This document shows, piece by piece, positions 24,126-64,000 of a stretch of DNA of 64,000 nucleotides. Position 1 is the first letter of the stretch, and the number at the start of each line of letters is the position of its first letter. The stretch is from an uncultured Rickettsiales bacterium (GTDB taxonomy: Bacteria > Myxococcota_A > UBA796 > UBA9615 > CAYRNR01). The notes beneath the pieces were generated by a model. The model did not search any database. It saw only the letters and a list, made by a program, of their open reading frames with translations, and was not told where the DNA came from. Both the position numbers and the translations under genes were made by a program. The stretch lies in NCBI GenBank assembly GCA_964425605.1, contig CAYRNR010000033.1, positions 31-64,030 on the forward strand, read 5' to 3'.

Positions 24126-24388
24126 GCTTCACCTCCGGCCTTGCGGGCCTCGACGCGCTTCTTGCGGGCGGCTGCCTTGGCCTTGAGGACCTTGGCGGTG
24201 GGGATCTCCGCGAGCTCGCCGTCGCTGATCATGCGGCGGTAGGTTCGGTTGGGCTCGACGCGGCAGGCCTTGTGGGCGTCCTTTGCGGGGTCGCCACAGG
24301 GGATGCGTTCCCGCTTGCGGCCGAGCCGGGGCACCACCAGGCCCGGCTTGGCCAGGACGAAGATGGAGTTGGTCTTGGGGTTCGGCAT
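24122..24388 (-). CDS. Mu gp38-like protein (DUF2635)
   Basis: 88-aa basic protein upstream of the sheath gene. Pattern PGLVVPRLGRKRERIP...EPNRTYRRMISDGEL. Confidence 0.6.
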   Translation of the reverse strand: MPNPKTNSIFVLAKPGLVVPRLGRKRERIPCGDPAKDAHKACRVEPNRTYRRMISDGELAEIPTAKVLKAKAAARKKRVEARKAGGEA

Positions 24389-38804: not shown

Positions 38805-38811
38805 CGGTCCG

Positions 38812-40482
38812 ATGCCGATCACTGACGAGCTGATCGTGGGCCTCGCGGCCAAGCTCGACGCCACCCCCCACGGTGGTCGCGGGCCTGTAGTGCAAGAGAC
38901 AGCGAAGCTGTGGGGCGTGTCCCAGGGCACCCTGTACCGCCACCTCCAGCGCGTCCGGCCGTCCGGCCGGGCCACCCGCTCGGACAAGGGCAAGCGGTCC
39001 CTGCAGAGAGACGCGGTCCGCCTGGCCGCGGAGCTGATGGTCCGCACGCAGACCAAGCGCGGCAAGCTCGTCACGCGCATCGACGAGGCCCTGGGCACAC
39101 TCCAGGAGGTGGGCATCGCCGCCCAGGACTGCTCCCCCAGCACGCTGGCGCGCTACCTGCGCGAGGACCGCATCTCGCCGTGGTTCCTCAAGGCGCCCTC
39201 GGCCGCCATCCAGCGTGTGTCCAACCATCCCAACCACGTCCACGTCGTGGACGCGTCCATCTGCCTGACCTGGTACCTGCGCAAGGACGGCCGCGTGGTG
39301 CAGGTGCCCGACGAGGAGCGGGTCTTCTACAAGAACAAGCCCGAGAACTTCCTCAAGTCCAAGCGCAAGCTGTACCGCTACGTCCTCACCGACCACTGCA
39401 CGCACGCGTTCTATGTCCACTACTACTACTCCACCGGTGAGACCGCCGAGGACCTACTCGACTTCCTGTGGCGGGCGTGGACCCCCAAGGACTGCGGCTA
39501 CTACCCGCTGCACGGCGTCCCCATCATCCTCGCTGGTGACCAGGGTCCTGGCCTGAAGGCCCAGACCAACCGAAACCTGCTCAAGACCCTCGACGTCACC
39601 CCGGACCTGCACATGGCCGGCAACGCCCGGGCCAGCGGCTCGGTCGAGGGCGCGCACTACCACTGGGAGCAGTGGTTCGAGTCCAAGCTGCTGCTGTGCC
39701 CGCCGTCCGACCTGGACGAACTCAACGAGCGCGCCTTCCAGGAGGCCGCGAAGATCAACGCCACCAAGCCCATGAGCCGGCACAAGATGTCGCGCTCCGC
39801 GGCCTGGTCGGCCTGGGCTACCGACGAGCACATCCGTTTCTGCCCGGACCAGGACGTCTTCTTCCACCTGGCCGTGCGCGACGCCGAGACGCGGAAGGTG
39901 AACAACTACGGCCGGATCTCGGTGGCCATGCCCAACGTGGGCAAGACGTGGTTCGAGCTCCGCGGCCCCGTGGTCCCCGGCGAGACCGTCGAGGTCCGCA
40001 TCCACCCCTACGTCCAGCGCCAGGTCCGCGTGTGGAACTCCCAGGACGTGGAGCTCGAGGTCATCCGCCTTGAGAAGGGCGAGCACAAGTTCCTCGAGGG
40101 CGGACGGTCCGGCGGCTTTGCCGGCGAGGAGTACGACCGCCACAGGATGCAGGACGCCGAGCGTATCCGGCGTGCCGCCAAGGAAGAGCCCCTGGAGCTT
40201 CCGGCAGCGGCCGTTTTCCGCAAGCCCGCTGAGGACGTCGAGAACCTCGCGTTCCTGGGCGCACCTCGAGGTGGCCGGCCGGCGCTGCGCGAGCAGGCCG
40301 CACAGACCGCCGTCACCTACATGCGTATCGACGTCAAGGCGCAAGCCATCCAGAAGCTCAACCGGTCTCTAACCCGCGAAGAGAGCCGGCTGATCAACGA
40401 ACACACCCCAGGCCCCATCACCGCCGAGGAGATGGAGGCCCTCATCGAGAAGCTGTCTGCAGAAAAGGTGCAGACGGCGTGA
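38812..40482 (+). CDS. DDE (rve-type) transposase, Mu/Tn552-TniA-like
   Basis: N-terminal HTH (WGVSQGTLYRHLQR). Catalytic candidates are HVVDAS, LAGDQGPG and SVEGAH (D..D..35..E spacing), followed by a beta-barrel-like C-terminal domain. Confidence 0.8.
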   Translation: MPITDELIVGLAAKLDATPHGGRGPVVQETAKLWGVSQGTLYRHLQRVRPSGRATRSDKGKRSLQRDAVRLAAELMVRTQTKRGKLVTRIDEALGTLQEVGIAAQDCSPSTLARYLREDRISPWFLKAPSAAIQRVSNHPNHVHVVDASICLTWYLRKDGRVVQVPDEERVFYKNKPENFLKSKRKLYRYVLTDHCTHAFYVHYYYSTGETAEDLLDFLWRAWTPKDCGYYPLHGVPIILAGDQGPGLKAQTNRNLLKTLDVTPDLHMAGNARASGSVEGAHYHWEQWFESKLLLCPPSDLDELNERAFQEAAKINATKPMSRHKMSRSAAWSAWATDEHIRFCPDQDVFFHLAVRDAETRKVNNYGRISVAMPNVGKTWFELRGPVVPGETVEVRIHPYVQRQVRVWNSQDVELEVIRLEKGEHKFLEGGRSGGFAGEEYDRHRMQDAERIRRAAKEEPLELPAAAVFRKPAEDVENLAFLGAPRGGRPALREQAAQTAVTYMRIDVKAQAIQKLNRSLTREESRLINEHTPGPITAEEMEALIEKLSAEKVQTA

Positions 40483-40492
40483 GGAGGAACCC

Positions 40493-41629
40493 TTGTCCGC
40501 CCGGAAACAACCCCGCAAGGCCAAGCGTCTTTGGCTGGAGACCGGCCACAGCGTAGCGAAGCTGGCCAGGCTGCTCGGCTACCGCGGTCCCCACCACGTC
40601 CGCGACGTCCTCAACGCCCGCTACGCGTCGGTCAGCGACGCCACGCGCACCCGCATCGAGAACATCTTCACACGCTACGACATCCCCATCGAGGGGATGT
40701 GGGATCTCGACGACCAGGTCGCCCCCTCGCAGCCCCAGAGCGCGCAGCGCTGCCACGCCATCGCCAACACCAATCCCGACGACGACGCCCAGGAGAAACC
40801 CGTGCGAATCCCCACCCGCGAACAGCTGTCCCTGCAGACGCTCAAGCACTTCGGCCTCGAGGCCGACCCGTTCGACGACATCCCGATCGTCCAGTCCTGG
40901 GATGACCAGATCCGCCAGTACCTGCGAGCGAGCATCCAGCGCGCGGTGCAGGCCAAGGACATTCTGGCCGTCTACGGTGGCGTCGGCTCCGGCAAGTCCA
41001 CCATGCTGCGCCAGCTGCTGCTGAGCCTCGGGGACCGCCAGGTCGCCGTGTGCGCTCCGGCGGCGGTGAACCGCAAGCGGCTCACCGACTCCCACCTCGT
41101 CAGCGCTCTCCTGCGCGACTTGGGCACCGACGACCCGGGGTACTCAATGGCCGCCGAGAAGCGCTCCCAGGTCCTGCGCGAGCAGCTCGAGAAGCTCAAC
41201 GCCAACGGCGTGCTGCCGGTGCTGGTGATCGACGAGGCCCACGACCTCAGCGACCAGGCCCTCGTCGCCCTCAAGCGCATCTGGGACAGCTACACCATCT
41301 ACCGACTGCTCAGCATCGTCCTGGTGGGCCAGGAGTCCATCGAGAAGCGCCTGCGCCACAACCTCGCCCTGCAGGAGTTCGCCGGGCGGTGCCACATGTT
41401 CCGCCTGCCGGAGCTCGAGCCGGCGGACGCCTACAACTACGTCGCCCACCGCTTCAAGGTGACCGGCGGTGACGCCGCCAAGGTCTTCGCCGAGGACGCC
41501 TTCAAGGGCTTCAGCTCCGGCGTCCCGATGTACCCCCTGTGGATCAACGCCATCGCCGTCCGCGCCATGCGACTCGCCCAGGACATGGGCGACGAGCTCG
41601 TCACCACCGACCACATCAACCGCGCCTGA
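40493..41629 (+). CDS. AAA+ ATPase transposition partner (MuB / TniB / ExeA-like)
   Basis: TTG start 5 nt after GAGGAGG. Walker A GGVGSGKST and Walker B VLVIDEAHDL. Confidence 0.75.
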   Translation: MSARKQPRKAKRLWLETGHSVAKLARLLGYRGPHHVRDVLNARYASVSDATRTRIENIFTRYDIPIEGMWDLDDQVAPSQPQSAQRCHAIANTNPDDDAQEKPVRIPTREQLSLQTLKHFGLEADPFDDIPIVQSWDDQIRQYLRASIQRAVQAKDILAVYGGVGSGKSTMLRQLLLSLGDRQVAVCAPAAVNRKRLTDSHLVSALLRDLGTDDPGYSMAAEKRSQVLREQLEKLNANGVLPVLVIDEAHDLSDQALVALKRIWDSYTIYRLLSIVLVGQESIEKRLRHNLALQEFAGRCHMFRLPELEPADAYNYVAHRFKVTGGDAAKVFAEDAFKGFSSGVPMYPLWINAIAVRAMRLAQDMGDELVTTDHINRA

Positions 41630-51391: not shown

Positions 51392-52476
51392 CAGCCCTCG
51401 CCCGCGCTCCCGTCGGAGGCTCCGCTGGTGACGCTGCGGGCGTGGTCGACGATCTTGGAGAACGAGATCTGGTCGACCCACAGGAAGAACAGCCCGAAGG
51501 CGAAGATGATGGACGTCTGGGTGACGTGGCAGACCACCGCGTAGGCCGCGCCCGAGTCCTTGTCCACGTTCAGCAGCGCCAGGCCGCCGATGATGAACGC
51601 CTCGAACACACCGGCGAACAGCGGCGGCGCAGGCAGCATCACGCCCACCACCAGGACCACCAGCAGCACCAGCCCCCCCAGCAGGCCGATGTGGTCGAAG
51701 TGGAACGCCTTGCACAGGGACCACATGCACAGCACGTTGAGGAACCAGATGAAGACGCTGTGGGTGACCATGGACAGGGCGAAGCGCGCGTCCTTCATGG
51801 TGCGGACGCCGTCGAGGAAAGACTGCATCATCCCCGCGACCTTGTGCGCCAGCCCCTTGTGCACGATCCCCACCACGGAATCCGTCCAGCGCACCGCACG
51901 GTCCTGGAGCACCAGGAACGCGAGCAGGCACCCCACGAAGGGTATGGTCGTGAACCCGATGGCCTTCTGGCCGTCGGCCACGAAGTTCATCTCGATCCCA
52001 CCGATGACGATGGCCTCGGGCAGGTCGGCGAAGATCACCGCCACGTAGAACATCAGGGCCAGGAAGAGGATGTCGATGGTGCGCTCGACCACCACCGAGT
52101 ACATGGACGCGCCGAACGGGGCGTCTGCGCGCTCGTGCAGGAGATACGGCCGCGCGAACTCGCCGAGCCTGAACGGCAGCGCCTGGATGGCGAGGAAGCC
52201 CACCGAGTTGATGCTGAACACCTGGCGGAACGAGACGGGGTGGACCTTGTTCACGATGCGGCCCCACCGCCAGGCCCGGCTGGCGTGCAGAGCGAGGAAC
52301 GACACGAAGCAGACCAGCCACCACAACTTGTCGACATCGCGGATGGCGCCGAGGAAGCGGTCCATGTCCACGTCGTGGAAGATGAGCACGAGCAGCCCGA
52401 TCCCGAGGCCGAAGCTGAACACCAGCTTCACCCACCTGAACCAGCCGCCACCCTTCTTGCCCTCGGCCCCGGTCAC
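51391..52476 (-). CDS. LPG_synthase_TM / UPF0104 flippase-like integral membrane protein
   Basis: About 8 TM helices with WRW..I motif (RAWRWGRIV). The GTG at 52476 overlaps the upstream stop (GTGA). Confidence 0.65.
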   Translation of the reverse strand: MTGAEGKKGGGWFRWVKLVFSFGLGIGLLVLIFHDVDMDRFLGAIRDVDKLWWLVCFVSFLALHASRAWRWGRIVNKVHPVSFRQVFSINSVGFLAIQALPFRLGEFARPYLLHERADAPFGASMYSVVVERTIDILFLALMFYVAVIFADLPEAIVIGGIEMNFVADGQKAIGFTTIPFVGCLLAFLVLQDRAVRWTDSVVGIVHKGLAHKVAGMMQSFLDGVRTMKDARFALSMVTHSVFIWFLNVLCMWSLCKAFHFDHIGLLGGLVLLVVLVVGVMLPAPPLFAGVFEAFIIGGLALLNVDKDSGAAYAVVCHVTQTSIIFAFGLFFLWVDQISFSKIVDHARSVTSGASDGSAGEG

Positions 52477-54368
52477 CGTGTCTGCTCCCCTCTGTCCGAA
52501 CCGCTGCGCCGGCGCCGCAAGCTCCAAACAAGCAGCAGGACCGGAGCGACCGAGGCGCCCTGCGCGGGGGCCGCGCGACATCCACGGCCGCCGAGCATGT
52601 CCTCGCGCGGGTCCGTACTCTCCAGGTACTCGTCGATATTCGCCACGCCGTCAAGGTCGGGATCGTCCAGGGAGTCGTCGACGGCCGTGTCCAGGAAGTG
52701 TGTCCACTCCCAGAGATCGGCCATCTCGTCCCCGTCCACGTCACGCGGGAGCCGGATATCGAGCTCGAAGGCGGCGCCCTCGGCGACGTGAATCACCTGT
52801 GCGTCCGCCAGCCGTCGCTCGCCGCCGCTGTACCAGGTGACCCATCCAGGATCGTCGAAACAGTAGCGGTAGGGCTCCGCCTGGAGTGTATAGGACCCCG
52901 GCACCAGCGGAGCCAGTCGGTATGACCCGTCCTCCTCGCTGGTGGCGAGCCTGGAGGGCAGCTCTGGATCGTCGGGCAGCGCCGTGACGTAGATCCGGTC
53001 CAGCGGGCGCCCCGACTCCCGTTCCCACACGTGCCCCTCGATCACCGCGGCCGTGGGCAGCGCCCGCGCGCCCAGGTCCAGGATCTCGCCCTGGACCACG
53101 TCGAACAGGTCGGCGTCGTTGCTCGACGAGCAGACACCATCGCCGCAGAGGTATCCAGCGAGCACGGTATCCTCGTTCGGGTCCACGTGGATCCGGTAGG
53201 AACCGCTGGCCAGGGTCCCGACGGAGAAGGAGCCGTCGACGTCCGTGTCCGCGCTCGCGTCGGCGCCCTCGCCCTCCGGGTAGGCGCGCACGGAGACGTC
53301 GTACAGCGGGTCGCCGAGGCCCGTCACGCTCCCTGCGACGACCCCCTGGGTTCCGAGGGCCACGTCCACGCCCGTCGTGACGCCGTCCTCGTCCACCGCC
53401 ACGGCGTCGGTCACCGCCGTGGCCAGCCCCTCACTGGAGACCTCGAGGGTGTACGACCCCGGCGAAAGCCCCGACAGGGTGTAGGTCCCGTCGAACCCCA
53501 GCGTCGCCGTGGCCTGGATCCACGACTGCTGATCGTGGCGAGCGTAGACGCCGCCGACGGTCAACGGCGCACCCTCGAGGTCCGTCGCCGTCCCCTCGAT
53601 GGTGGCGCCTGCGGGGATCACCATGTCCCAGCCATCGAGCACCTGGCCACGCAACGCCGTCACCGGCTCGGCCTCGTCGGCCGTGTACCCGGCCGGGTAG
53701 TAGACCACCGGGCGACCCGACACGGTCACCTTGAGCTCGTAGTTGCCCGGCACCGGCGTGGGGTCGTCGCTGCTGACGATGGCCGAGTCCAGGCCCACCA
53801 CGGTGTATCGGCCATCCACGGCCGTGTAGACGGTGGGGTCGATGTTGGAGTTGTAGTAGTCGAGGCCGCGCACGTCGATGCGGGCCCCCTCGACGGGGTC
53901 TCCGGTCGAGCCGTCGGTGACGATCCCGCTGATGGTCCCGCCGCGCGGCAGGTTGAAGTCGATGCCGTCCGCGTACCGATCGTCGCGCAGGTCCAGCAAG
54001 GTCCCGCTGCAGTAGAAGTACATGTCGGCGTAGTACGCGCCGATGAAGTCCTGCCCGTCCAGGGGCCATGCCTTGAGCCGGTGGAAGTCCGCGGGCAGGC
54101 CCATGGCGTGGTAGGCGCCGTCCGCGTCGGTGGTGAAGATCTCGTAGTGGGCCTGGACGTCGAACACCACCACGGACATGCCAGCGATGGACTCGCCGTC
54201 GGGGTACGAGACCACACGGCCCTCCACGTGGCTCGCGCCGCCCGGGTCCACCTGTCGGTTCCCGGGCCACGTCGCTCCCTCGATGACCTCCTCGTCCGCG
54301 CACCCTGGCGACGCGAGGACAAACCACGCGACGACGAGCCAGGCAGTGGAGGCTGGGCTGGATCTCAC
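52473..54368 (-). CDS. lipoprotein with repeated carboxypeptidase-regulatory-like domains and MYXO-CTERM-like tail
   Basis: Lipobox LASPGC. Repeated G.V.D..G.P..GA.V units. DxDxDG-type calcium-like motifs, then GC-RAAPAQGASVAPVLLLVWSLRRRR. Confidence 0.7.
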   Translation of the reverse strand: MRSSPASTAWLVVAWFVLASPGCADEEVIEGATWPGNRQVDPGGASHVEGRVVSYPDGESIAGMSVVVFDVQAHYEIFTTDADGAYHAMGLPADFHRLKAWPLDGQDFIGAYYADMYFYCSGTLLDLRDDRYADGIDFNLPRGGTISGIVTDGSTGDPVEGARIDVRGLDYYNSNIDPTVYTAVDGRYTVVGLDSAIVSSDDPTPVPGNYELKVTVSGRPVVYYPAGYTADEAEPVTALRGQVLDGWDMVIPAGATIEGTATDLEGAPLTVGGVYARHDQQSWIQATATLGFDGTYTLSGLSPGSYTLEVSSEGLATAVTDAVAVDEDGVTTGVDVALGTQGVVAGSVTGLGDPLYDVSVRAYPEGEGADASADTDVDGSFSVGTLASGSYRIHVDPNEDTVLAGYLCGDGVCSSSNDADLFDVVQGEILDLGARALPTAAVIEGHVWERESGRPLDRIYVTALPDDPELPSRLATSEEDGSYRLAPLVPGSYTLQAEPYRYCFDDPGWVTWYSGGERRLADAQVIHVAEGAAFELDIRLPRDVDGDEMADLWEWTHFLDTAVDDSLDDPDLDGVANIDEYLESTDPREDMLGGRGCRAAPAQGASVAPVLLLVWSLRRRRSGSDRGEQTR

Positions 54369-55579
54369 GGGGCGGGCGCCTTGTCCGCGGTCCCCTGCTC
54401 CCGGTCCAGCTGCTCGTCCACCCGCTCGGCCAGGGCGATGGCGAAGCGGTAGGCGAGCGTGATGCTGCCGCGGCTGAGCAACTTGATGCGATCGCGGCCG
54501 GTGTGCACCGGGGTCGCCGGGCGCCCCGACCGCAGCCCCTTGAGGGTGATGGCCGGGTAGCGGTGCCGAGACGCCACGCCCGCGTCGCTCAGACCGAGCA
54601 ACAACATCGGCCGTACCTGCTTGTAGTCCTCCTCCCGAGCCAGCGCCGCCGCGAGCCCGGGCAGGAGCGGGTGGTAGGTCTCACGCGAAGGGGTCTTCTC
54701 GCCCACGGCGAAGCAGATCCGCCCTGCGCCGACGTCGTCGATGTTCACCACGAAGGTGTTCTCGGGCGGCAGCGTCCGACCGAAGGTCTTGAGGAACGCC
54801 TCGACACCGCCGCAGTCCGCCTCACGGCTACCCGTCACGAGGAAACACGGCTCCGCGTGCTGGAGGGGGTGGCTGGCGAAGTACTCGGCAAGCGCCGCCA
54901 GCACGGCCAGGCCCGATCCGTTGTCGTTGGCGCCCCGGGCGGGTCGCGGAAGGCTCCAGTCCATCGACAGCAGGGTCACCACCGCGAACAGGACCACCGG
55001 GATCATCAGCAGTACGTCGAGGACCTCGAGGTGGATGCCCGGAAATCGAAGGGCGATCAGCGCGACCTGGATCCACCCTACCTCCAGGGCCAGCCGCATC
55101 GGGTGCACCTTGGTCGTGCTGTCCGCGCCCTGGAAGAACCGCCCCAGCCAGCGGTTGTGGATCAATCCCCGGCGCGCCACGTCGCCGTGGGCGACGAAGA
55201 GGATGCGGGGGATGTCCTCGTCCTTGCCCGCCATCCTGCGGGCGATGAGGTTGCTGGAGATACCCTTGGGTAGCAACCACCGGAACATCCGCCGGCGGTA
55301 CGCGGCCTCCCCGTGCAGCGACAGGATCGTCAACAGGGTCAGCACCAGCCCCGCCTTGGGGTTGGTCACGCCCCACAGCCCCCCCAGCACCAGACAGAAG
55401 CTGTGGATGGCCCACACGAGCCCAGGGTTGAGATGGCAGACACACCCCTCGACCCGCGCCTGGTAGCCCAGGCGGTTGAGGAGCCCAGCCAGCGCCTCCT
55501 GGCTCGCCCGCTCGCCACGCCCTCCGGCGGTGCGGTCGCCGAACTGCCTCAACTGCTCGATGAACGGCCGCGCTTCCAC
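54365..55579 (-). CDS. membrane-embedded M28-family metallopeptidase
   Basis: FVAHGDV and RGANDNGSGLAVL M28 motifs, interrupted by TM helices. Confidence 0.7.
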   Translation of the reverse strand: MEARPFIEQLRQFGDRTAGGRGERASQEALAGLLNRLGYQARVEGCVCHLNPGLVWAIHSFCLVLGGLWGVTNPKAGLVLTLLTILSLHGEAAYRRRMFRWLLPKGISSNLIARRMAGKDEDIPRILFVAHGDVARRGLIHNRWLGRFFQGADSTTKVHPMRLALEVGWIQVALIALRFPGIHLEVLDVLLMIPVVLFAVVTLLSMDWSLPRPARGANDNGSGLAVLAALAEYFASHPLQHAEPCFLVTGSREADCGGVEAFLKTFGRTLPPENTFVVNIDDVGAGRICFAVGEKTPSRETYHPLLPGLAAALAREEDYKQVRPMLLLGLSDAGVASRHRYPAITLKGLRSGRPATPVHTGRDRIKLLSRGSITLAYRFAIALAERVDEQLDREQGTADKAPAP

Positions 55580-55667
55580 CGTACCCTCGCTGTGATTGGA
55601 TGGCTGTCACTGTAGCACGGGCGAGCGCGACAGGCGCACGAGGTGGTGTGTTGGGTACAATCCGCAC

Positions 55668-56954
55668 ATGAGCGGAGTCGGGGAACACATCACATTCGAG
55701 GCCGCCGGGCGGAGGTTCGTGTTCGTGGTGGCGTCGTCGGCCCTGTTCGAGGTGGACGGGGAGCTCGACGACGCCGTCTGGACTCAGCTGGCCTCGGTCG
55801 GAGCGACACGAAGGACGCGGGACCCCGCGCCGGACGACGGCACGCTGGCCACCCTGGTGCTGCAGCTGCGGAGGTCGTGTAACCTCAGGTGCGCCTACTG
55901 CTACTGCGATCCCGAACCGGGCGACGGAGCGCCAGACCGTATGTCCGCGGAGACGGCCCGCGCGGCGGTGGACCTCTTGTTCGCCCACCTGCCCCCTCGG
56001 GGGCCCGCCGGCATCACCTTCTTCGGGGGAGAACCGTTGCTGGAGCTCCCCCTGCTGCGCGCCACGGCCACCCACGCGCTACAGCGAGCCGCGGAGCTCG
56101 ACCGGGAGGTCACCTTCTCCCTGACCACCAACGGCACCACCGTGACCGAGGAGGCGGCGGATCTTCTGGCGGAGATCGGCGCGCGGGTCACCGTCAGCAT
56201 CGACGGCGACCGCGAGCTCCACGACCACTACCGCGTCTTCGCCGACGGCACGGGCTCGTACGACGCAGTGAAGGCCGGCGTGAGGCTCCTCGAGCGGGGA
56301 CTCCGCCCCAGCGCCCGGGCGACACTCACGGCCGACTCGCCCGATCCAGTACCCGTGGTGGACCACCTGCTCGGCCTGGGCTTCGAGTCCGTGGGGGTGT
56401 CCGTCGCGGACGTGGCGGATCCATCGCTGGCTCCGGCCGACGCGGCGCTGGAGTTGATCGAAGCTGGGATGGAGACCCTGGCCGATCGCTACCTGGACCA
56501 GGCGCTGGCCGGCCGTCACCTGGGATTCGCCAACCTCGACGGCTTGCTGCGCACGCTGCACCGCGGGATGAACCGGGACTACCCGTGCGGCGCAGGGCTA
56601 CGGCTCGCGTGCTGCGACACGGACGGGACGCTCTACGCGTGCCATCGTCTGGCAGGGCGCGCCGCGTACGCCGTGGGGACCCTCGACGGGGGCCTGAACC
56701 GCCGCGACCGGCTGCGCGACCTGAGCCTCCGCGCGCGCACCGGCTGCCACAGCTGCTGGGCGCGGCACCTGTGCGGCGGCGGCTGCCACCACGCCCGACT
56801 CGTCGCGGGGCGCGACGTGGAACAGTTGCAGGTGTGTGCCTGGCTGCGGCGATGGATGCTCAAGGGCCTGCAGGTGTACGCGGAGCTGGTGGTGAGAGGG
56901 ACGCCGTTCCTGGCGGAATTCGTCGATCCTGCACCGCCGTGCGCGGTAGAGTAG
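55668..56954 (+). CDS. qhpD: radical SAM / SPASM peptide-modifying enzyme, QhpD-like
   Basis: CNLRCAYC (CxxxCxxC). C-terminal SPASM cysteines (CGAG...CC...C..., CHSCWARHLCGGGCHH). Followed 17 nt later by the Cys-rich peptide gene. Confidence 0.75.
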   Translation: MSGVGEHITFEAAGRRFVFVVASSALFEVDGELDDAVWTQLASVGATRRTRDPAPDDGTLATLVLQLRRSCNLRCAYCYCDPEPGDGAPDRMSAETARAAVDLLFAHLPPRGPAGITFFGGEPLLELPLLRATATHALQRAAELDREVTFSLTTNGTTVTEEAADLLAEIGARVTVSIDGDRELHDHYRVFADGTGSYDAVKAGVRLLERGLRPSARATLTADSPDPVPVVDHLLGLGFESVGVSVADVADPSLAPADAALELIEAGMETLADRYLDQALAGRHLGFANLDGLLRTLHRGMNRDYPCGAGLRLACCDTDGTLYACHRLAGRAAYAVGTLDGGLNRRDRLRDLSLRARTGCHSCWARHLCGGGCHHARLVAGRDVEQLQVCAWLRRWMLKGLQVYAELVVRGTPFLAEFVDPAPPCAVE

Positions 56955-56971
56955 CGGCGCGGAGGCGAGCG

Positions 56972-57262
56972 ATGGCCAAGGGAATCCGACCGATCAACCT
57001 CAAGGCCCACCTGCTCATGCGGCGAGGCGACGTCCAGGGGTGCGCATTCAGCGAATGCTCCTCCACGTTCGCGCCCGGCTGGGAGGTGGGCGAGTTCGGG
57101 GATCCGGACCCCTGTCCCTGGAAGTTCGACCTGGAGCTGTGCTGGGCCACCTGCTACTGGACCGGCCAGGTACCCGACATGTACATGTACCCCGACTGGC
57201 TCGGCGCCTGCGCGAACATCAACCTCGACTGGCGCAACCTGTGCACCATCCCGGACAACTGA
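56972..57262 (+). CDS. qhpC: 96-aa Cys/Trp/Asp-rich peptide, QhpC (QHNDH gamma subunit)-like precursor
   Basis: GGAGG 6 nt before the ATG. Seven Cys and six Trp. The Cys-to-Glu/Asp and Cys-to-Trp spacings match the QhpC cross-link pattern (see findings). Only the last 96 codons of listed ORF 55889..57262 are real. Confidence 0.65.
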   Translation: MAKGIRPINLKAHLLMRRGDVQGCAFSECSSTFAPGWEVGEFGDPDPCPWKFDLELCWATCYWTGQVPDMYMYPDWLGACANINLDWRNLCTIPDN

Positions 57263-57264
57263 CC

Positions 57265-58266
57265 ATGCGCTGCCTCCTGCTCCTCCTCGCCCTGGTGGCG
57301 GTCACTCCGGCCCACGCGGAGAACGCCTGGGTGGCGTCCACGTCCATCCGGATCATCGACCTGGACTCCGGCGCGCTGGTGGGGAGCACCACCGTCGCGG
57401 CCGATCAGGTGATCCGCGAGATCGCCTTCGACGACAGCGGCGCGCGCGCCTTCGTGGCGTCCATGGGCGGTCTGTTCGTCGTGGACACGGCGTCCCTGGG
57501 CGTGCTGGAGCGGATCAGCGACCGGCCCACCTGCTCGGTGGACTTCCGCGATGGCACCCTCGCAGCGCTCCACCTGAAGCCCGCGGGCGACGGGCTCGCC
57601 GAGCGGGATCAGGGGATCCCGTCCACGGTGACCCTGGCCCTGTACGACGCGGCCACCGGCGCAACGCTGGCGCAGGCCGAGGTGCACGGCCGACCGCTGC
57701 GGGTCCGCGCCACCGCAGATCGCCTCTTCGTGCTCGACTCCAACGAGGCGGTCCTGACGGTGTTCGACCGGGCCGCGTCGCGGATGGGAGAGGTGGATCT
57801 GGCTCCGGACGCAGAAGACGGGCAGGCGTTCCTGTGCGCCGATCTGAGCCTGTCCGGCGAAGGCACCCTCGCCGTGGCGCGCAGTTCGTCGGCGGGTTCG
57901 GCCGTCGTGATGGTGTGGCCCGCCGACGCCGTGGCCGACTCCAGGGTGTCCGTGGTGGACGTCGGGGCCGAGCACCGCGTCCGCGGCGCCGCGTTCGCGA
58001 TGGATTCCGAGCACGTGTACGCCACGGCCATGGGCCACGTCGCGCGCCTGTCGACGAGCGCCCCGGCGGCCACCTGGCAGCACGTCGGGCACCGCTTCGC
58101 CGCGGTGGAGACCTCCCCCAGCGGGGCGTACGTCGTGATGGCCACGCCGATCTTCGACGAGCAGCGCGGCACGGGCGGTGTGCTGGTGGCCGACGCCGAG
58201 GGCCGGACCCTGCGGGTGATCGAGCTGGTGGACATCTCCCCCTACACCCTCGCCGTCCAGCCGTGA
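57265..58266 (+). CDS. qhpB: secreted beta-propeller protein, QhpB (beta subunit)-like
   Basis: Signal peptide MRCLLLLLALVAVTPAHA. Repeated beta-strand blade-like units. Its position directly after the peptide gene matches qhpDCB order. Confidence 0.55.
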   Translation: MRCLLLLLALVAVTPAHAENAWVASTSIRIIDLDSGALVGSTTVAADQVIREIAFDDSGARAFVASMGGLFVVDTASLGVLERISDRPTCSVDFRDGTLAALHLKPAGDGLAERDQGIPSTVTLALYDAATGATLAQAEVHGRPLRVRATADRLFVLDSNEAVLTVFDRAASRMGEVDLAPDAEDGQAFLCADLSLSGEGTLAVARSSSAGSAVVMVWPADAVADSRVSVVDVGAEHRVRGAAFAMDSEHVYATAMGHVARLSTSAPAATWQHVGHRFAAVETSPSGAYVVMATPIFDEQRGTGGVLVADAEGRTLRVIELVDISPYTLAVQP

Positions 58267-59120
58267 CCGCGACGGCAGGCTTCACCGTCTCCGCCCGCGG
58301 TGATCGCCCCCTGGCCCAGCGCGCCCACCTCCCCGACTGGCTCCGCTCCGCGCGGCGCTCCCACCTGCGGATCGGCTCGTCCCTGTGCCACCGCCGGATG
58401 CCCGACGCCGCGGCCCTGGAGCGTGCGATCGGTCGGTCACGCGACGCGGGGCTGGGCCTGGAGGTGGCGACACCAGTCGTGGGTGACGTCGCCCTGGAGG
58501 CGCTCACACGGCTGCTGCTGCAGCTGGCCGAGGAGGCACCCGACGCCGAGGTCGCCGTCAACGATTGGGGAGTCCTGCGGGTCCTGATCCGCCGGGGTCG
58601 CTCCCTGCGCATCGTCGCCGGGCGACTCCTCCACCGACAGATGCGCGATCCCCGCCTGGTGACCCTGGAGCCCCGGGATCTGGGCCACGACGACTGGCCG
58701 GAGGCCTGGCGCTGGGGGTCTTCGTCCTCCCCTGCGTGGCGGGAGTTCGCCTCGGCCTGCGGCATGACCCGCTTCGAGATGGACTGGGCCCGTCCCGGTC
58801 CCGGGCCGACCCCGCCGACGGGGCTGGACGCCTCGATCCACCTCCCCTTCACGCTGGTGGGGCTGGGCAGGACGTGCCTCGACCACGGTCCCGCGGGACC
58901 GGCGGACGGGTACGGCGGTGACGAGCCCTGCGGCCAGGCCTGCACCGGGAGGCCTCGCGGGGTCGTGGAGTCGAGCTCCGCGGCGGGATCCGTGGAGCTG
59001 CTGCGGGAGGGACGCGCCGAGCTGGTTCGCCAGCCGCCCGAGGAGCTGGAGCGGGCCCGGACGTGGCTGGTCACACCGCCGCGGGGCACACGCGTGATCG
59101 TCGCCGGCGAGGGGGACTGA
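58263..59120 (+). CDS. U32-family Fe-S protein, UbiV-like
   Basis: The GTG overlaps the preceding stop. GSSLCHRR, VAVNDWGVLRVL, IVAGRLLH and the C-x17-C-x3-C cluster align by eye with E. coli UbiV. Confidence 0.6.
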   Translation: MTATAGFTVSARGDRPLAQRAHLPDWLRSARRSHLRIGSSLCHRRMPDAAALERAIGRSRDAGLGLEVATPVVGDVALEALTRLLLQLAEEAPDAEVAVNDWGVLRVLIRRGRSLRIVAGRLLHRQMRDPRLVTLEPRDLGHDDWPEAWRWGSSSSPAWREFASACGMTRFEMDWARPGPGPTPPTGLDASIHLPFTLVGLGRTCLDHGPAGPADGYGGDEPCGQACTGRPRGVVESSSAAGSVELLREGRAELVRQPPEELERARTWLVTPPRGTRVIVAGEGD

Positions 59121-59121
59121 C

Positions 59122-60084
59122 GTGGATCTGCTCGCGCCCCTCTCCGCTGCCGAGGAGGTCGAGCCCCTGGTCCGGGCCGGCGCCACGGACCTGTACTGTG
59201 GCCTGTTCGACCGGGGCTGGGCGCGGCGCTGGGGGCTGGGGAGCTGGCCCAACCGTCGCGGGCCCGGGCCGGCGAATCTGGGCGATCTGGAGGAGCTGGA
59301 ACGAACAGGTCAGGAGGCGGCCGCAGCGGGAGTCCGGCTCCACCTGGTGCTCAACTCGCCGCTGCTGGGCGACGAGCAGGAGGCCGCCGTGCTCGCCCTC
59401 GCCCGGACGGCCGTGGAGGAGCTGGGGGTCCACGGGCTGATCGTCGCCAACCCGGGCCTGTTGCGTCCCCTCGCCGACACCGGCGCCCTGGTCACGGCCA
59501 GCACCCTGTGTACGGTGCGCAACGCCGAGGCCGCGCTGTTGCTGGCCGACCTGGGCGCTCATCGTATCGTGCTCAGCCGACAGCTGGCCCTGGCGGAGAT
59601 GCGCACCATCCGCGACAGGACGCCCGGGCTGGAGCTGGAGGCGTTCGTGCTCAACGACGCGTGCGTCTTCGAGGAGGGCAGCTGCTTCACCGCTCACGCG
59701 CTGCCGGGCTGGGGCGGAACGTACTGCCTGGGTGATCGTCGGGTGCTCGAGGAGTCCGACGCCTGGGCGCGTCACCGGGCGTGGACCGACGCCCTGGGGG
59801 CCCGCGGCTTCTCCGCGGCGGGCCTCCCCCGCGGGCCGTGTGGCCTGTGCGCGCTGCCCGCGCTGGCGGACATGGGGATCGACGGCGTCAAGGTCGTCGG
59901 CCGGGAGGCGCACCCGTACAGGAAGGTCCGGTCGGTCCAGATGGTGCGTCACGTGCTAGACGGCCTCGACGCGGGCGGCCCCGAAGAGGCCTCCTCGCGC
60001 GCCCTGGCGCTGCGAGACGACGCGGGCGGCTGCCGCTCGGGCCTCTCGTGTCTGTACCCGGAGGCTCGCCGCTTCGATGAGTGA
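59122..60084 (+). CDS. U32-family protein, UbiU-like
   Basis: N-terminal LLAPLS..E..PLVRAGATDLYCG. EAFVLNDACVFEEGSC matches the E-x-F...C-x4-G-x-C part of the U32 signature. GPCGLC is also present. Confidence 0.7.
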   Translation: MDLLAPLSAAEEVEPLVRAGATDLYCGLFDRGWARRWGLGSWPNRRGPGPANLGDLEELERTGQEAAAAGVRLHLVLNSPLLGDEQEAAVLALARTAVEELGVHGLIVANPGLLRPLADTGALVTASTLCTVRNAEAALLLADLGAHRIVLSRQLALAEMRTIRDRTPGLELEAFVLNDACVFEEGSCFTAHALPGWGGTYCLGDRRVLEESDAWARHRAWTDALGARGFSAAGLPRGPCGLCALPALADMGIDGVKVVGREAHPYRKVRSVQMVRHVLDGLDAGGPEEASSRALALRDDAGGCRSGLSCLYPEARRFDE

Positions 60085-61819
60085 GTCGTCCCCCTCCCGC
60101 TGGCACGAGCTGCTCCGCGTTCTGAGCTGGCTGCGGCCCCACTGGCGGGTCCAGGTGGGGCTGCTGGGGCTCATGGCGCTGGGCACTGGGCTCTCCCTGG
60201 CCTACCCCTGGCTGCTCAAGCTGGTGTTCGACCAGGTCTTCGCCCGCGACCGCTACGAGCTGCTGCCCTGGCTCGCGGCGGGCATCGCAGCGTCCGCCGT
60301 GGCCGGCGCCGCGTTGAGCGCCCTCGCCTCGTGGCATCAGGCGCGCCTCGCCGTGACCGTGCTCCTCGAGCTGCGGACCGCCCTGTTCGACCGGCTCCAG
60401 CGGTTGAGCCTGGACTACGTCCAGCGGGCCCGGCTGGGGGACCTGCTCAGCCGCCTCGGCGGGGACCTCAACGAGGTGCAGACGGTCGCGACGTCCACCG
60501 TCATCCCGCTGGCGGGCGCGCTGCTGAACCTGACGGGTTCGGTGGTCCTGCTGGCCTGGATCTCCCCCACCCTGCTCGGCGTGGCGCTGCTCTTCGCGCC
60601 CGCGGCGTGGGCCCTGGTGCGCCTGTTCCGCCCCCGCGTCGAGGCGCGGGCGCTTCAGGTTCGCGAGCGCAACGCCGACCTGGGCAGTCAGATGGTGGAG
60701 AGCCTCCAGGAGGCGCGGTTCGTGCGCGCCAGCGGCACCGCCGATCTCGAGGTGTCGCGGTTCGCGGCCCTCAACCGCGCCCTGGCGACGAGCGTGCTCG
60801 GCTTCCAGAAGCTCTCCCTGGCGTATGGAGGCACAGGGCAGGTGCTCGTGGCGATCAACGGGCTGGCCATCTTGCTCGTGGGAGCCGCGCTGGTGCGCCA
60901 GGAGATGCTCACCGTGGGCGATCTCGTGGCGTTCGCGCTGTATCAGGCCCGACTGTTCGGTCCGGTGCGGGGCCTGACCGCCATGGCCCTCGGCCTCCAC
61001 CGCGCGCGCGCCTCGGTGAGGCGCGTATTCGAGGTCCTGGACGAGGACCTCCCCGCGGCCCCTTCCGGCGGCGGCAAGGCGCTGGACGCTCTCGAGGGGC
61101 GCGTGGAGCTTCAGCATGTGGGCTTCGCCTACGATCCGGGGCACCCCGTGCTCGAGGGCGTCTCGTTCATCGTCCCGCCCGGGCGCTCCCTCGCCGTGGT
61201 GGGGCCTTCGGGGGTGGGCAAGAGCACGCTGGTAGACCTCCTGCTGGGCCTGCGCCAACCGACGGCGGGAACGGTGAAGATCGACGGACACCCCCTCGAG
61301 ACCCTGGATCCGGGGTCGTTCCTCCCTCGCATGGCCCTGGTGAGCCAGCGCCCCGCGGTCTGGTCGGACACCTGGCGCGCGAACCTGCTCTACGGCATCG
61401 AGCCACGCGACGACCGCGAAGTGTGGGAGGCGCTGCAGCAGGTGGGCCTGCTGTCGTTCGTCGAACGCCAGGGCCTCGACGCCCACGTGGGTCAGCGGGG
61501 GGCACGCCTCAGCGAGGGGCAACGCCAGCGCCTCGGCCTGGCGCGCGCGCTGCTGCGGAGGCCCGCCGTGCTGGTGCTGGACGAGGTCACCGCCGGCCTC
61601 GACTGGGAGGCGGATCGGCTGGTCGGCGACCTGCTGGCGTCGCTGGACGGCCGCGTGACGCGCATCCTGGTCACCCACCGCCTCTCCCTGTCCGCCATCG
61701 CCGACGAGGTGGTGGTGCTCCAGGAGGGTCAGGTCGTGCAGCGTGGCGACCACGCCGCGCTCAAGGCGGCGCCGGGACTCTACCGGGATCTGCTGCGACG
61801 GCAGGTGGATGTCGGCTGA
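60077..61819 (+). CDS. ABC exporter (fused TMD-NBD), QhpF-like
   Basis: Six-TM N-terminal half. Walker A GPSGVGKST, signature LSEGQRQR, Walker B VLVLDE. Confidence 0.8.
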   Translation: MSESSPSRWHELLRVLSWLRPHWRVQVGLLGLMALGTGLSLAYPWLLKLVFDQVFARDRYELLPWLAAGIAASAVAGAALSALASWHQARLAVTVLLELRTALFDRLQRLSLDYVQRARLGDLLSRLGGDLNEVQTVATSTVIPLAGALLNLTGSVVLLAWISPTLLGVALLFAPAAWALVRLFRPRVEARALQVRERNADLGSQMVESLQEARFVRASGTADLEVSRFAALNRALATSVLGFQKLSLAYGGTGQVLVAINGLAILLVGAALVRQEMLTVGDLVAFALYQARLFGPVRGLTAMALGLHRARASVRRVFEVLDEDLPAAPSGGGKALDALEGRVELQHVGFAYDPGHPVLEGVSFIVPPGRSLAVVGPSGVGKSTLVDLLLGLRQPTAGTVKIDGHPLETLDPGSFLPRMALVSQRPAVWSDTWRANLLYGIEPRDDREVWEALQQVGLLSFVERQGLDAHVGQRGARLSEGQRQRLGLARALLRRPAVLVLDEVTAGLDWEADRLVGDLLASLDGRVTRILVTHRLSLSAIADEVVVLQEGQVVQRGDHAALKAAPGLYRDLLRRQVDVG

Positions 61820-62546
61820 CCTCCCCCTCGTCGCCGTGCTGGACTCGGGTGTGAACCCTCGCCATCCGCACCTGACCCACGTGACCCTCGAGGGATTCGC
61901 CGCACCGGACGACTCCGGCGATCTGGACGAGGCGGCTCCCCCCTGCGACGTCCACGGTCACGGAACCGCCGTGACCGCGGCGGTGTTCCGGCGCGTCCAG
62001 CGCGGGCGCCTCCTCGGCATCCGCGTCCTCGACGCCAGGCTGGCGGGTCACCATCAACTCCTCGCGGACGCCATCTCTCTGGCCGCGAGGCGGGGCGCCC
62101 GCCTGATCAACGTGTCGATGGGCACCTCCGACGAAGCGGCACGACCGCGACTGGCCGAGGCCGTCCGGTTCGCCCAAGCGGGTGGTGCCATCGTGGTCGC
62201 CGCCGTGCCTCCGGTCGGGTGTGGCTGGCCAGCAGACCTACCCGGCGTCCTCGGCGCGGTGGCGGATCCCGCGTGCCCGCCGGACCGGGCATACCCGGTG
62301 GATCCCGACCGAGGCTTGCCCGCCGCGCCCGAATGCGCTTTGCTCCGGTATCGGGCCCACTCCGACGCCATCCCCCCCGGCGGGGCCGCTCGGCGCGGGA
62401 ACCTCGGCGGCAGCAGCCTGGCCGCCGGTCACCTGACCGGCCTGGTCGCGGCGCTGCTCACGCGCGAGCCCCAGCTGGATCTCACGGGGATACTCCAGAG
62501 ACTGGGCCCGGAGACGGAAGGAGGGTGTCCATGGGACGACGTCTAG
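61809..62546 (+). CDS. small subtilisin-like S8 serine peptidase, QhpE-like
   Basis: VAVLDSGV (Asp), HGHGTAV (His), GGSSLAAGHLTG (Ser). No signal peptide. About 245 aa. Confidence 0.7.
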   Translation: MSADLPLVAVLDSGVNPRHPHLTHVTLEGFAAPDDSGDLDEAAPPCDVHGHGTAVTAAVFRRVQRGRLLGIRVLDARLAGHHQLLADAISLAARRGARLINVSMGTSDEAARPRLAEAVRFAQAGGAIVVAAVPPVGCGWPADLPGVLGAVADPACPPDRAYPVDPDRGLPAAPECALLRYRAHSDAIPPGGAARRGNLGGSSLAAGHLTGLVAALLTREPQLDLTGILQRLGPETEGGCPWDDV

Positions 62547-64000
62547 CCGCCGCGCTGGTGGCGCTGCTGATGACCGCAGCCACCCCGACCGCGCACGCCA
62601 ATCAGGGCGACATCATGGGGATCGGCGCGGCCGCCATGGGCCGCGGGGGCGGCGGGGTGGCCATCGCCGACGATGTCTTCGCGCTCTACTACAACCCAGC
62701 GGGTATGGCCCAGCTCGAGCGCGGTGCCTTCGCCTTTGGCGCCCACGGCGGTCATATGCGGCTCCAGGGCTTCCCGCCCATCGCCTGGGACGCCAACAAC
62801 GACGGCGTCATCAACCCCGAGAACCCCTACGACCGCTGGGTCGTCGAGGACTACGACTACGACGATCCCAGCGGCTTCCACGCCGGGCTGGTCAAGAGCT
62901 ACACCAAGTGGTTGCGCATGGGCCTGTGCCTGACCCTGCCGTGGAAGCGGATCATCGCCGTACAGCAGGAGGATCCGTACCTCCCCTACTACGTCCGCTG
63001 GAAGAACCGCCCCCAGCGGCTGAGCCTGTACGCCGGCGCCTCCATCCAGCCCGTGGACGGGCTGGCCTTCGGCGTGAGCGTCGCCATCCTGGCGCGCTGC
63101 AAGCTGGTGCTGGACTTCCAGATCGACGCCACGGTGGACGACTCGCAGCTCCAGGACGATCCCGAGGAGTCCCTGAACCTGGACCTGATCGTCAACCCAC
63201 AATACATCGAGCTCGACGTGCGCCCCGCGTTCGCGCCCATCCTCGGCTTCCGGCTGGACATGAAGCTGGTGCACGAGTCCCTGGCCGGCTGGACCTGGGG
63301 CGTGACCTACCGCCACCCCATCGACCTGCTCATCGAACCCACCATCCTGGGCCTGGACCTCTACGGGCGGGCGGAGGATCTGGGCTCGCTGGAGTCGATC
63401 ATCGTCCCGCTCCAGGCGCAGATCTATTTCTCCATCCTCGACTACTTCACGCCGCGGCAGCTCGCGCTGGGGACCGCGCTGCGCAAGGAGTTCTTCACGG
63501 CGTACGTGGACCTGACGTGGAACCAGTGGTCCAAGGCCGCGCCCTCGGTGGGTCGCATCGACGAGTCCGCCACAGAGGTCAAGATCGGGCTGGTGGACAT
63601 GGACCCGCGGGTGATCAACGCGCGGGAGATCGATCCCCTCGAGTGGAGGGACACCTGGGTGTTCCGCGCCGGCTTCGAGATCACCCCCAAACCCAAGCAC
63701 ATCGGCGGCAAGTTCGAGGAGATCGGCGTCGTGTTCCGCGGGGGGTATGCCTACGACCCCACCTGGATACCCGAACAGACCCGCATGACGAACTTCATGG
63801 ACTCGGACCATCACCTGGTGTCCTTCGGCACCGGCGTGCGCGTGGGCGACCCCTTCGGTGTGATCGAGGGGCCCATCAGCCTCGACGTGTTCCTTCAGCT
63901 GCAGAAGATGGTCTCCCGTACCCACACGAAGGACGGCGACCTGGTCGAAGACGGCACCGTGCCCGCCGGGTATCCCCTGGCCGGCGAGATCACCACCGAC
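62531..64000 (+). CDS. FadL/TodX/OMPP1-family outer-membrane transport protein (3' end outside window; absent from the ORF track)
   Basis: Own translation: MGRRLAAALVALLMTAATPTAHANQGDIMGIGAAAMGRGGGGVAIADDVFALYYNPAGMAQL... stays open to the window end. The signal peptide and the GA.AMGRGG...A..YNPAG motif are typical of the family. AGGAGGG precedes the ATG, and the start overlaps the S8 gene by 16 nt. Confidence 0.65.
   Translation, partial: MGRRLAAALVALLMTAATPTAHANQGDIMGIGAAAMGRGGGGVAIADDVFALYYNPAGMAQLERGAFAFGAHGGHMRLQGFPPIAWDANNDGVINPENPYDRWVVEDYDYDDPSGFHAGLVKSYTKWLRMGLCLTLPWKRIIAVQQEDPYLPYYVRWKNRPQRLSLYAGASIQPVDGLAFGVSVAILARCKLVLDFQIDATVDDSQLQDDPEESLNLDLIVNPQYIELDVRPAFAPILGFRLDMKLVHESLAGWTWGVTYRHPIDLLIEPTILGLDLYGRAEDLGSLESIIVPLQAQIYFSILDYFTPRQLALGTALRKEFFTAYVDLTWNQWSKAAPSVGRIDESATEVKIGLVDMDPRVINAREIDPLEWRDTWVFRAGFEITPKPKHIGGKFEEIGVVFRGGYAYDPTWIPEQTRMTNFMDSDHHLVSFGTGVRVGDPFGVIEGPISLDVFLQLQKMVSRTHTKDGDLVEDGTVPAGYPLAGEITTD

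Follow-up and report, generated by a model that had tools for sequence, protein, structure and literature searches.

A QhpC-family peptide beside a U32 iron-sulfur protein pair in a gene cluster without QhpA and QhpG: a candidate haem-less quinoprotein

How could a peptide of the QhpC family be matured and put to use in a gene cluster that encodes neither the di-haem subunit QhpA nor the tryptophan hydroxylase QhpG? This question is raised by a 64,000-nt stretch of DNA (hereafter the window) from an uncultured bacterium (assembly GCA_964425605.1, contig CAYRNR010000033.1), which encodes a 96-residue QhpC-family (gamma-like) precursor peptide at positions 56972-57262 of the plus strand. QhpC is the gamma subunit of quinohaemoprotein amine dehydrogenase (QHNDH). 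In the canonical system, QhpD introduces three thioethers into the leader-bearing peptide, QhpG dihydroxylates Trp43 with FAD and O2 in a complex of QhpC, QhpD and QhpG, QhpE cuts off the leader and QhpF exports the peptide (PMC7876137). The cofactor cysteine tryptophylquinone (CTQ) is formed from Cys37 and Trp43, and thioethers connect Cys7 with Glu16, Cys27 with Asp33 and Cys41 with Asp49 (PMC8172795; PMC7876137). The reading favoured here, with a probability of roughly 0.55, is that the cluster encodes a haem-less, QHNDH-like periplasmic quinoprotein in which the peptide would be the cofactor-bearing gamma-like subunit, and that a pair of U32-type Fe-S proteins encoded in the same cluster would hydroxylate its tryptophan W63.

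The peptide belongs to the same protein family as QhpC of the canonical qhpADCBEFG operon. It is matched by the Pfam model PF08992 (QH-AmDH_gamma) with 45.1 bits (E 1e-11; cut-off 25) and by the NCBIfam model NF037958 (QH_gamma) with 53.2 bits (E 2.3e-14), the latter only just exceeding the cut-off of 50. Among all PDB sequences, the sole matches are 1jmx_G (E 9e-12) and 1jju_C (E 2.6e-9), which align with residues 25-93. Both are gamma chains, and they represent the two quinohaemoprotein amine dehydrogenases of solved structure, 1JMX (chain G) of Pseudomonas putida and 1JJU (chain C) of Paracoccus denitrificans. This resemblance is far beyond chance and marks the predicted product as a true QhpC relative. 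Mapped onto 1jju_C, C29 corresponds to C7, E38 to E16, C48 to C27, D53 to D33, C57 to C37, C61 to C41, W63 to W43 and D69 to D49, i.e. the four cysteines and the equivalents of Glu16, Asp33, Asp49 and Trp43 are all kept. These eight cross-link and cofactor residues are invariant among 23 relatives (alignment A1), and they are likewise invariant in alignment A7, which adds canonical QhpC proteins from Paracoccus and Pseudomonas as well as more distant relatives. The predicted thioethers of the peptide are C29-E38, C48-D53 and C61-D69, with C57 and W63 as the predicted CTQ pair. A first-pass annotation of the window, made from the letters alone, had proposed a QhpC-like precursor with the QhpC cross-link map and an adjoining radical S-adenosylmethionine (SAM) enzyme. 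This core of its reading is upheld by the family models, the PDB matches and the alignments, in which the Cys, acidic and Trp positions correspond to those of QhpC; the cross-link map that it had used agrees with the published one (PMC8172795; PMC7876137).

The peptide differs from canonical QhpC in several details. The ring between C48 and D53 (C-X4-D) is shorter by one residue than its canonical counterpart. The first-pass annotation had named D53 and E55 as alternative acceptors for C48; as D53 is invariant and E55 is variable, D53 is the probable acceptor of this ring, and only that half of the proposal stands. The canonical leader comprises 28 residues and is cleaved six residues ahead of the first cross-linked cysteine (PMC7876137). 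Transferred to the peptide, the cut position of QhpE falls after residue 22, which coincides with the earlier guess of a leader of about 22 residues and divides the precursor into an inferred leader of residues 1-22 (56972-57037) and a core of residues 23-96. A leader motif (N..KA, with N9 and A12 in the peptide) is common to both proteins. In addition, the 'WW' ahead of the ring in QhpC is replaced by 'YW', and two extra cysteines, C80 and C91, are found near the C-terminus (see below). Judged by its sequence, the peptide itself is an ordinary, if divergent, member of the QhpC family.

The open reading frame (ORF) of the peptide is a genuine gene and did not arise by chance from the high GC content (67% in the window), because it has a GGAGG Shine-Dalgarno sequence 8 nt 5' of its ATG, because only 2 nt separate its stop codon from the start of the next gene, and because its third-position GC is 0.90-0.92 across the ORF, with the flanking genes up- and downstream lying in the other two frames. 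The translation given in the first-pass annotation was identical on re-translation (96 residues plus stop). A longer in-frame ORF at 55889-57262 (457 residues) was rejected as an artefact of high GC, since third-position GC dates coding only from about position 56970. Neither tRNA genes nor Rfam features were found in the window.

The gene directly downstream of the peptide gene (57265-58266, plus strand) encodes a secreted seven-bladed beta-propeller of the YVTN type with 333 residues, starting with a Sec-type signal peptide (MRCLLLLLALVAVTPAHA, followed by E after the cleavage site). Neither blastp nor phmmer yielded a significant match between this protein and QhpB. A profile built from 26 propeller homologues, on the other hand, matches YVTN-type propellers, among them the QHNDH beta chain 1jju_B at E 1.5e-9; the model TIGR03907 (QH_beta) is matched by 18 of these 26 homologues, beside other propeller models, and the window protein itself has no match to it. 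An AlphaFold2 model of the protein has seven blades and a predicted local distance difference test score (pLDDT) of 91.6. In a Foldseek search of 350,542 PDB chains with this model, 1jju_B ranked first (E 1.8e-12; template modelling score 0.70) by a small margin over other seven-bladed propellers, and 1jmx_B ranked 14th. The propeller gene lies in the position of qhpB, its product has about the size of QhpB, and in the loci compared it always follows the peptide gene. The fold and profile matches together with position, size and secretion argue that the propeller is the counterpart of QhpB.

Homologues of the proteins that cross-link, process and export QhpC are encoded on both sides, all on the plus strand. 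Upstream of the peptide gene lies the gene of a QhpD-like radical SAM/SPASM maturase (55596-56954; likely start ATG 55668, M25). Its best NCBIfam model is TIGR03906 (QhpD) with 295 bits, which is below the cut-off of 453, and PapB is second with 255 bits. The protein is 33% identical to QhpD (E 1e-62), has the CX3CX2C motif at C95-C102, and this motif as well as all of its SPASM cysteines align with those of QhpD, marking the predicted enzyme as a QhpD homologue that lies outside the curated equivalog. At 60077-61819, a QhpF-like ATP-binding cassette (ABC) exporter is encoded, in which a transmembrane and a nucleotide-binding domain (ABC_membrane and ABC_tran) are fused and a peptidase domain is lacking; it is 34% identical to QhpF of Pseudomonas nitroreducens (E 1e-73). 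The following gene (61743-62546; likely start ATG 61809) encodes a QhpE-like leader protease of the subtilisin family (S8). Its best model is NF049966 (QH_SP) with 123 bits, under the cut-off of 165, and it is 31% identical to QhpE (E 5e-8), with an Asp/His/Ser triad that aligns with that of QhpE. The cluster thus resembles the qhp operon in having homologues of QhpD, QhpE and QhpF and, by fold, of QhpB, in the near-identical order D-C-B...F-E, whereas identities to QhpC, QhpD, QhpE and QhpF amount to only 31-37%.

In contrast to the qhp operon, the cluster contains neither the di-haem subunit QhpA nor QhpG, and an Fe-S protein pair is encoded between the B and F counterparts. No tblastn match to QhpA or QhpG (two canonical sequences each) was found at E<=1 across the window, and the haem-c motif CXXCH occurs in none of its coding ORFs. 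For comparison, 39 species-level genome loci, 4 loci obtained by exact protein look-up and 18 metagenome loci were inspected, the flanks being +/-10 kb wide in the case of genome and look-up loci and +/-7 kb wide in that of metagenome loci; the operons of Paracoccus pantotrophus pPAN2 (L046) and Pseudomonas nitroreducens (L047) served as canonical references. About 30 loci have in common the order M28 peptidase (minus strand), radical SAM enzyme, peptide, propeller, V protein, U32 protein, ABC exporter, S8 protease and outer-membrane protein. Within the flanks, tblastn with QhpA and QhpG gave no match at E<=1e-5 in the syntenic genome loci and none at E<=1e-4 in the metagenome loci. QhpG was weakly matched only in L034, a locus of unrelated architecture. 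ORFs with CXXCH were absent from the flanks of the approximately 30 syntenic loci, and the same CXXCH scan picked up QhpA in the control locus L046. The lack of both QhpA matches and CXXCH ORFs in the window and in the syntenic flanks indicates that a haem subunit is not encoded together with this system. The system itself is found in at least 30 species-level genomes, mostly marine metagenome-assembled genomes (MAGs) of the Myxococcota type. Many related MAG records (L007-L017 and others) are labelled 'uncultured Rickettsiales bacterium'; this label looks unreliable, and GC is high (63% in L016).

The two genes between propeller and exporter encode the Fe-S pair. The second of them (59122-60084, plus strand) encodes a cytoplasmic, UbiU-like protein of the peptidase U32 family with 320 residues, which is matched by PF01136 with 107 bits and aligned to E. 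coli UbiU by hhalign with 99.2% probability. The [4Fe-4S] cluster motif of UbiU is CX6CX16CX38C, and that of UbiV is CXnCX12CX3C with the first cysteine far upstream (PMC6747719). In the U32 protein of the window, the cysteines C181-X6-C188-X13-C202-X37-C240 are invariant, and C181 and C188 align with C169 and C176 of UbiU. Its equivalog scores are 54 bits for UbiU (cut-off 440) and 51 bits for TrhP (cut-off 534). With scores so far under both cut-offs, the protein can be placed in a separate, uncharacterised subfamily.

The first gene of the pair (58263-59120, plus strand; gene call P0058) encodes the V protein, a UbiV-like Fe-S protein with 285 residues that appears to be distantly related to U32 proteins and to share their TIM-barrel-like fold. 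Four of its cysteines, arranged as C42-Xn-C205-X17-C223-X3-C227, are invariant (alignment A3). The V protein has no Pfam or NCBIfam match of its own and none in a profile search of PDB sequences, and only 1 of 18 V homologues matches PF01136. The V family and the neighbouring U32 family are aligned by hhalign with 88% probability, and C42 is placed, weakly, on C39 of E. coli UbiV (E 0.019). The AlphaFold2 model of the V protein (pLDDT 69.5) is TIM-barrel-like, and Foldseek ranks the U32 peptidase 5d88 fourth (E 4e-3). As a predicted pair, the two proteins can be assigned with different firmness: the assignment of the U32 protein is solid, that of the V protein moderate.

The pair resembles UbiU-UbiV (YhbU/YhbV of E. 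coli) in that the genes are adjacent and both products cytoplasmic, and in that a clear U32 TIM barrel with CX6CX(13-16)CX(37-38)C is combined with a divergent partner having CXnCX(12-17)CX3C. Unlike in UbiU-UbiV, the gene order is V then U, a UbiT/SCP2 partner is missing, the subfamily is a separate one, and the U32 protein has the additional invariant cysteines C243, C304 and C310. UbiU-UbiV catalyze three ring hydroxylations independently of O2 with prephenate as the oxygen donor, and the other U32 hydroxylases, TrhP and RlhA, act on C5 of uridine and of cytidine, respectively (PMC10990095; PMC6747719). Most U32 subfamilies are uncharacterised. The only chemistry linked with the family is the O2-independent hydroxylation of aromatic or heteroaromatic rings, and no enzymes other than U32 proteins have been linked with this reaction (PMC10990095; PMC6747719).

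In 22 species-level genome loci, the V and U32 genes are flanked by the propeller gene on one side and the exporter gene on the other; the truncated locus L019 has V only. A search from the U32 side in an independent metagenome collection yielded 18 loci, and all 17 informative ones show V upstream and/or the ABC exporter and S8 protease downstream, the 18th being a weak partial match. Wherever the upstream flank was long enough (6 of 6 loci), the radical SAM enzyme, the QhpC-like peptide and the propeller are encoded as well. This U32 subfamily therefore seems to exist only inside this cluster. In some loci, V and U32 are separated by inserts of two types. The first is a Ser/Thr kinase of about 1050 residues (L055:3816-6974, L058:1452-4610, L021:10758-14012, minus strand), the second a protein of 340-430 residues with an 'LLGEKHDN.DHHRLQA' motif, which is ChaN-like by eye (L054:5680-6978, L028:4691-5716).

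From these components, the following course of maturation can be proposed. The leader would dock the peptide on the QhpD-like radical SAM/SPASM enzyme, which, going by its homology, would form the thioethers C29-E38, C48-D53 and C61-D69 between Cys sulfur and side-chain methylene groups. The indole ring of W63 would then be hydroxylated in the cytoplasm by the [4Fe-4S] pair of V and U32 proteins without O2, a step suggested by gene association and by the chemistry of the family. The target would be, as for UbiU-UbiV, an sp2 C-H of an electron-rich aromatic ring, with the difference that the substrate would be a peptidyl tryptophan; the action of UbiU-UbiV on ubiquinone precursors, with prephenate, would be the model for the oxygen donor. 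By homology again, the QhpE-like S8 protease would remove the leader and the QhpF-like exporter would transfer the cross-linked core into the periplasm, where it would join the Sec-exported propeller and C57 would be linked to the oxidised W63 to give CTQ. The complex would use D53 (canonical Asp33) as catalytic base in the oxidation of a primary amine. Its substrate may be hydrophobic and enter via an adjacent FadL/TodX-type channel, and the electrons would pass to an acceptor encoded outside the cluster. Every canonical maturation step has a homologue in the cluster except the hydroxylation, and U32 chemistry fits this step. On these grounds, the most economical reading would be that the U32 pair hydroxylates W63 in place of QhpG.

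Several points weigh against this proposal. The peptide modifications and the chemistry are predictions, and all curated equivalog models except QH_gamma score under their cut-offs. The V protein can be tied to U32 and UbiV only weakly. Five related genome loci (L016, L020 and L036-L038, the last three from Eisenbacteria) keep peptide, propeller, exporter and protease without the U32 pair, which means that the pair is not obligatory. In two of them, a secreted Cys-rich and Asp-rich protein of 235-249 residues is encoded where V and U32 would be (L016:1524-2273, L020:11393-12100); it has no Pfam match and is possibly an alternative maturation or partner protein. Many of the source samples are marine, some from possibly oxic seawater; a particular requirement for an O2-independent route is not apparent. 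With the haem subunit missing, no electron path is evident either. Finally, the genomes are MAGs, and their chromosomes may have qhpA or qhpG at another site.

The U32-less loci bear directly on one alternative, according to which the peptide is a gamma subunit as proposed above, while the U32 pair has another target, is a peptidase or serves in electron transfer, and the tryptophan is oxidised by another enzyme or autocatalytically in the periplasm. We consider this unlikely, if deserving of serious attention. All five U32-less loci keep the CTQ Trp and Cys, and we know of no protein substrate for any U32 enzyme. Moreover, no in-vitro reconstitution of a direct hydroxylase activity has so far been achieved for U32 proteins (PMC10990095). 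These arguments are countered by the co-occurrence, which is strict when viewed from the U32 side (17 of 17 informative loci), by the position of the pair in the operon between subunit and export genes, and by the fact that the sole maturation step lacking an enzyme is an aromatic hydroxylation, the one chemistry linked with U32 proteins. A ubiquinone role of the pair is unlikely as well, since Myxococcota use menaquinone.

A different alternative, which appears rather improbable, is an ordinary QHNDH with a split operon, with qhpA and qhpG at another place in the genome and the U32 pair as a bystander or accessory. It draws support from the peptide, which clears the cut-off of the QH_gamma equivalog. 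Automatic annotation already catches this family: the representative of the peptide's 90%-identity cluster, MDP7113485.1, carries the name 'quinohemoprotein amine dehydrogenase subunit gamma [Myxococcota bacterium]'. Gene order and arrangement of qhp genes vary (PMC7876137), and the inspected DNA amounted to 64 kb for this genome and to +/-10 kb for the others. However, homologues of QhpA and QhpG and CXXCH ORFs are absent from these 64 kb and from about 30 syntenic loci alike, the scores for QhpD, QhpE and QhpB are far under the equivalog cut-offs, i.e. the whole system is divergent, and the confinement of the U32 subfamily to this cluster argues against a bystander. Under the preferred reading of a haem-less enzyme, the current label of the gamma subunit overstates the content of the gene cluster.

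That the peptide is instead a secreted ranthipeptide-type product, i.e. a peptide made on the ribosome and modified after translation (RiPP), on a QhpC-like scaffold, with the propeller unrelated or serving as an immunity or receptor protein, is highly improbable: a radical SAM/SPASM enzyme, a protease and an ABC exporter do form the standard RiPP layout, the ranthipeptide maturase PapB is the second-best model for the radical SAM enzyme, and C91-X3-D95 resembles the CX3D units of freyrasin (PMC8172795), but the invariant residues comprise, beyond the thioether pairs, the Trp and Cys of the cofactor and also the catalytic Asp, the 74-residue core can be aligned from end to end with an enzyme subunit of solved structure, and the peptide gene is always followed by that of a secreted propeller whose top structural match is QHNDH beta.

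Returning to the haem-less quinoprotein, a more far-reaching form of this reading describes a two-subunit CTQ enzyme whose cofactor is built without O2 by the U32 pair on a thioether-caged peptidyl Trp, with up to five thioether rings being possible. It is a tentative proposal to which we would assign less than an even chance. The two additional rings concern the C-terminus of the peptide. In the first-pass annotation, the last ~27 residues had been considered to have no counterpart in QhpC. Residues 70-93 do align with residues 50-74 of the canonical protein (W76 with W57, D86 with D67 and W87 with W68 of 1jju_C), and what stands of that claim is the presence of C80 and C91, which are extra and fall on the canonical residues A61 and Q72, respectively. 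Of the 23 sequences of the clade, 22 have C91, and C80 is invariant (A1).

The distribution of both cysteines across the family was obtained from a profile search of 1.84 billion representative proteins, in which 54 QhpC-family clusters were found. A cysteine at the position of C80 occurs in many of these clusters without C91 (endings '...KCAAATKDWR..DLVFP'), and the 'LC..PD' ending with C91 is confined to relatives of the window peptide. Since a Cys at position 80 is often present without C91, its general role cannot lie in a C80-C91 disulfide. In the clade of the window peptide, the two residues may either be joined in such a disulfide or form one additional thioether each, C80-X5-D86 and C91-X3-D95. 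The first of these predicted rings would have the size of canonical Cys27-Asp33 and the second that of the freyrasin rings (PMC8172795). Many canonical-looking QhpC proteins (P0073, P0075, P0078, P0084-P0092 and others) have such a fifth cysteine in a C-X5-D arrangement with an invariant Asp before 'DW', and both structurally studied QhpC proteins lack it. In much of the QhpC family, this cysteine may provide a fourth thioether or a free thiol.

Two further known systems share parts of the proposed scheme. LodA and GoxA are haem-less CTQ enzymes with dedicated enzymes for the first hydroxylation of the Trp, the flavoproteins LodB and GoxB. In contrast to the window cluster, the CTQ of LodA is part of a single large polypeptide, a thioether-caged small subunit, a radical SAM enzyme, a leader and an exporter are all missing, and the hydroxylase of LodA/GoxA is an O2-dependent flavoprotein. 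The ranthipeptides (freyrasin, PapA/PapB) share with the window peptide a homologous maturase, thioethers from Cys to Asp or Glu side chains and possibly a C-terminal CX3D, and differ from it in being short repeat peptides with neither a quinone cofactor nor a propeller partner. A literature search, with subscription journals partly covered, found no report linking U32 proteins with tryptophylquinone or QHNDH and none on a haem-less, QhpG-less qhp-like cluster. No related paper was found that joins peptidase U32, radical SAM enzymes and RiPPs.

The cluster is flanked by further genes that are kept in related loci. Downstream of the protease gene, a FadL/TodX-type outer-membrane channel is encoded at 62543-64000 on the plus strand, running off the end of the window (PF03349, 32 bits; cut-off 29.7). 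By synteny, this channel is kept downstream of the cluster in many loci, and it may be the entry route for a hydrophobic substrate. On the other side, an M28-family peptidase (54365-55579, minus strand; PF04389) is divergently transcribed. Its N-terminal half is hydrophobic, and, as judged by eye, it may be located in the membrane. It is accompanied by a 631-residue protein with five CarboxypepD_reg domains (52473-54368, minus strand), whose signal is lipoprotein-like and whose C-terminal tail is hydrophobic and rich in Arg. In at least 20 loci, the genes of both proteins are kept next to the cluster in divergent orientation. The idea that the CarboxypepD_reg protein is a haem-less remnant of QhpA was dropped, as it has no match to QhpA domain families. 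Farther upstream, a Mu-like prophage occupies about 14000-42000 of the window. Its minus strand encodes a minor tail protein (19659-21539), a tail sheath protein (22683-24128) and a fusion of Mu portal and Mu F proteins (28973-31735), and its plus strand a 593-residue protein without a Pfam match in the position of MuA (38701-40479) and a MuB-like AAA_22 ATPase (40394-41626).

Other arrangements of QhpC-like genes were seen among the loci compared. In loci of the Acidobacteriota type, a 295-residue protein is followed by a QhpC-like peptide, a 352-residue protein and an FG-GAP/InhA-MAM protein of about 790 residues. The 295-residue protein has a weak match to domain IV of QhpA (PF09100, E 0.002), which was seen only there. 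In the Acidobacteriota MAG L001, this four-gene unit is present as a tandem duplicate on a 3.5-Mb contig (9072-13787 and 14178-18896). Neither unit contains a radical SAM gene; in L031, L041 and L045, such a gene lies just upstream of one peptide copy. A subclade with 'ACHPC[YF]WSAQ[VI]PD' peptides has cytochromes of 546-640 residues with five CXXCH motifs, encoded 3-5 kb upstream of the QhpD- and QhpC-like genes (L032:4817-6559, L035:4783-6423, L042:4743-6665). These penta-haem cytochromes may be a separate electron-acceptor solution that replaces QhpA. In P0097 (557 residues) and P0101 (518 residues), an N-terminus like the QhpC leader and first ring ('ECS..YAPGMEVG...') is fused to a longer polypeptide. 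The QhpC scaffold evidently serves enzyme formats beyond the single one studied so far.

For the QhpC family, the locus describes a conserved cluster that keeps the maturation line of QhpC with QhpG swapped for members of the U32 family. The cluster suggests that the catalytic core of QHNDH, consisting of gamma and beta subunits, can exist without the haem subunit, which puts both the electron acceptor and the substrate in question. To our knowledge, all characterised hydroxylations of Trp on the way to tryptophylquinones depend on enzymes that use O2 or H2O2, namely QhpG, LodB/GoxB and MauG. If the proposed role of the U32 pair is true, W63 would be part of the first protein substrate for U32 hydroxylases, and the cluster would be the first case in which a protein-derived quinone cofactor is made independently of O2. 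The peptide with W63 thereby offers a concrete, soluble and genetically encoded candidate substrate for an uncharacterised U32 subfamily.

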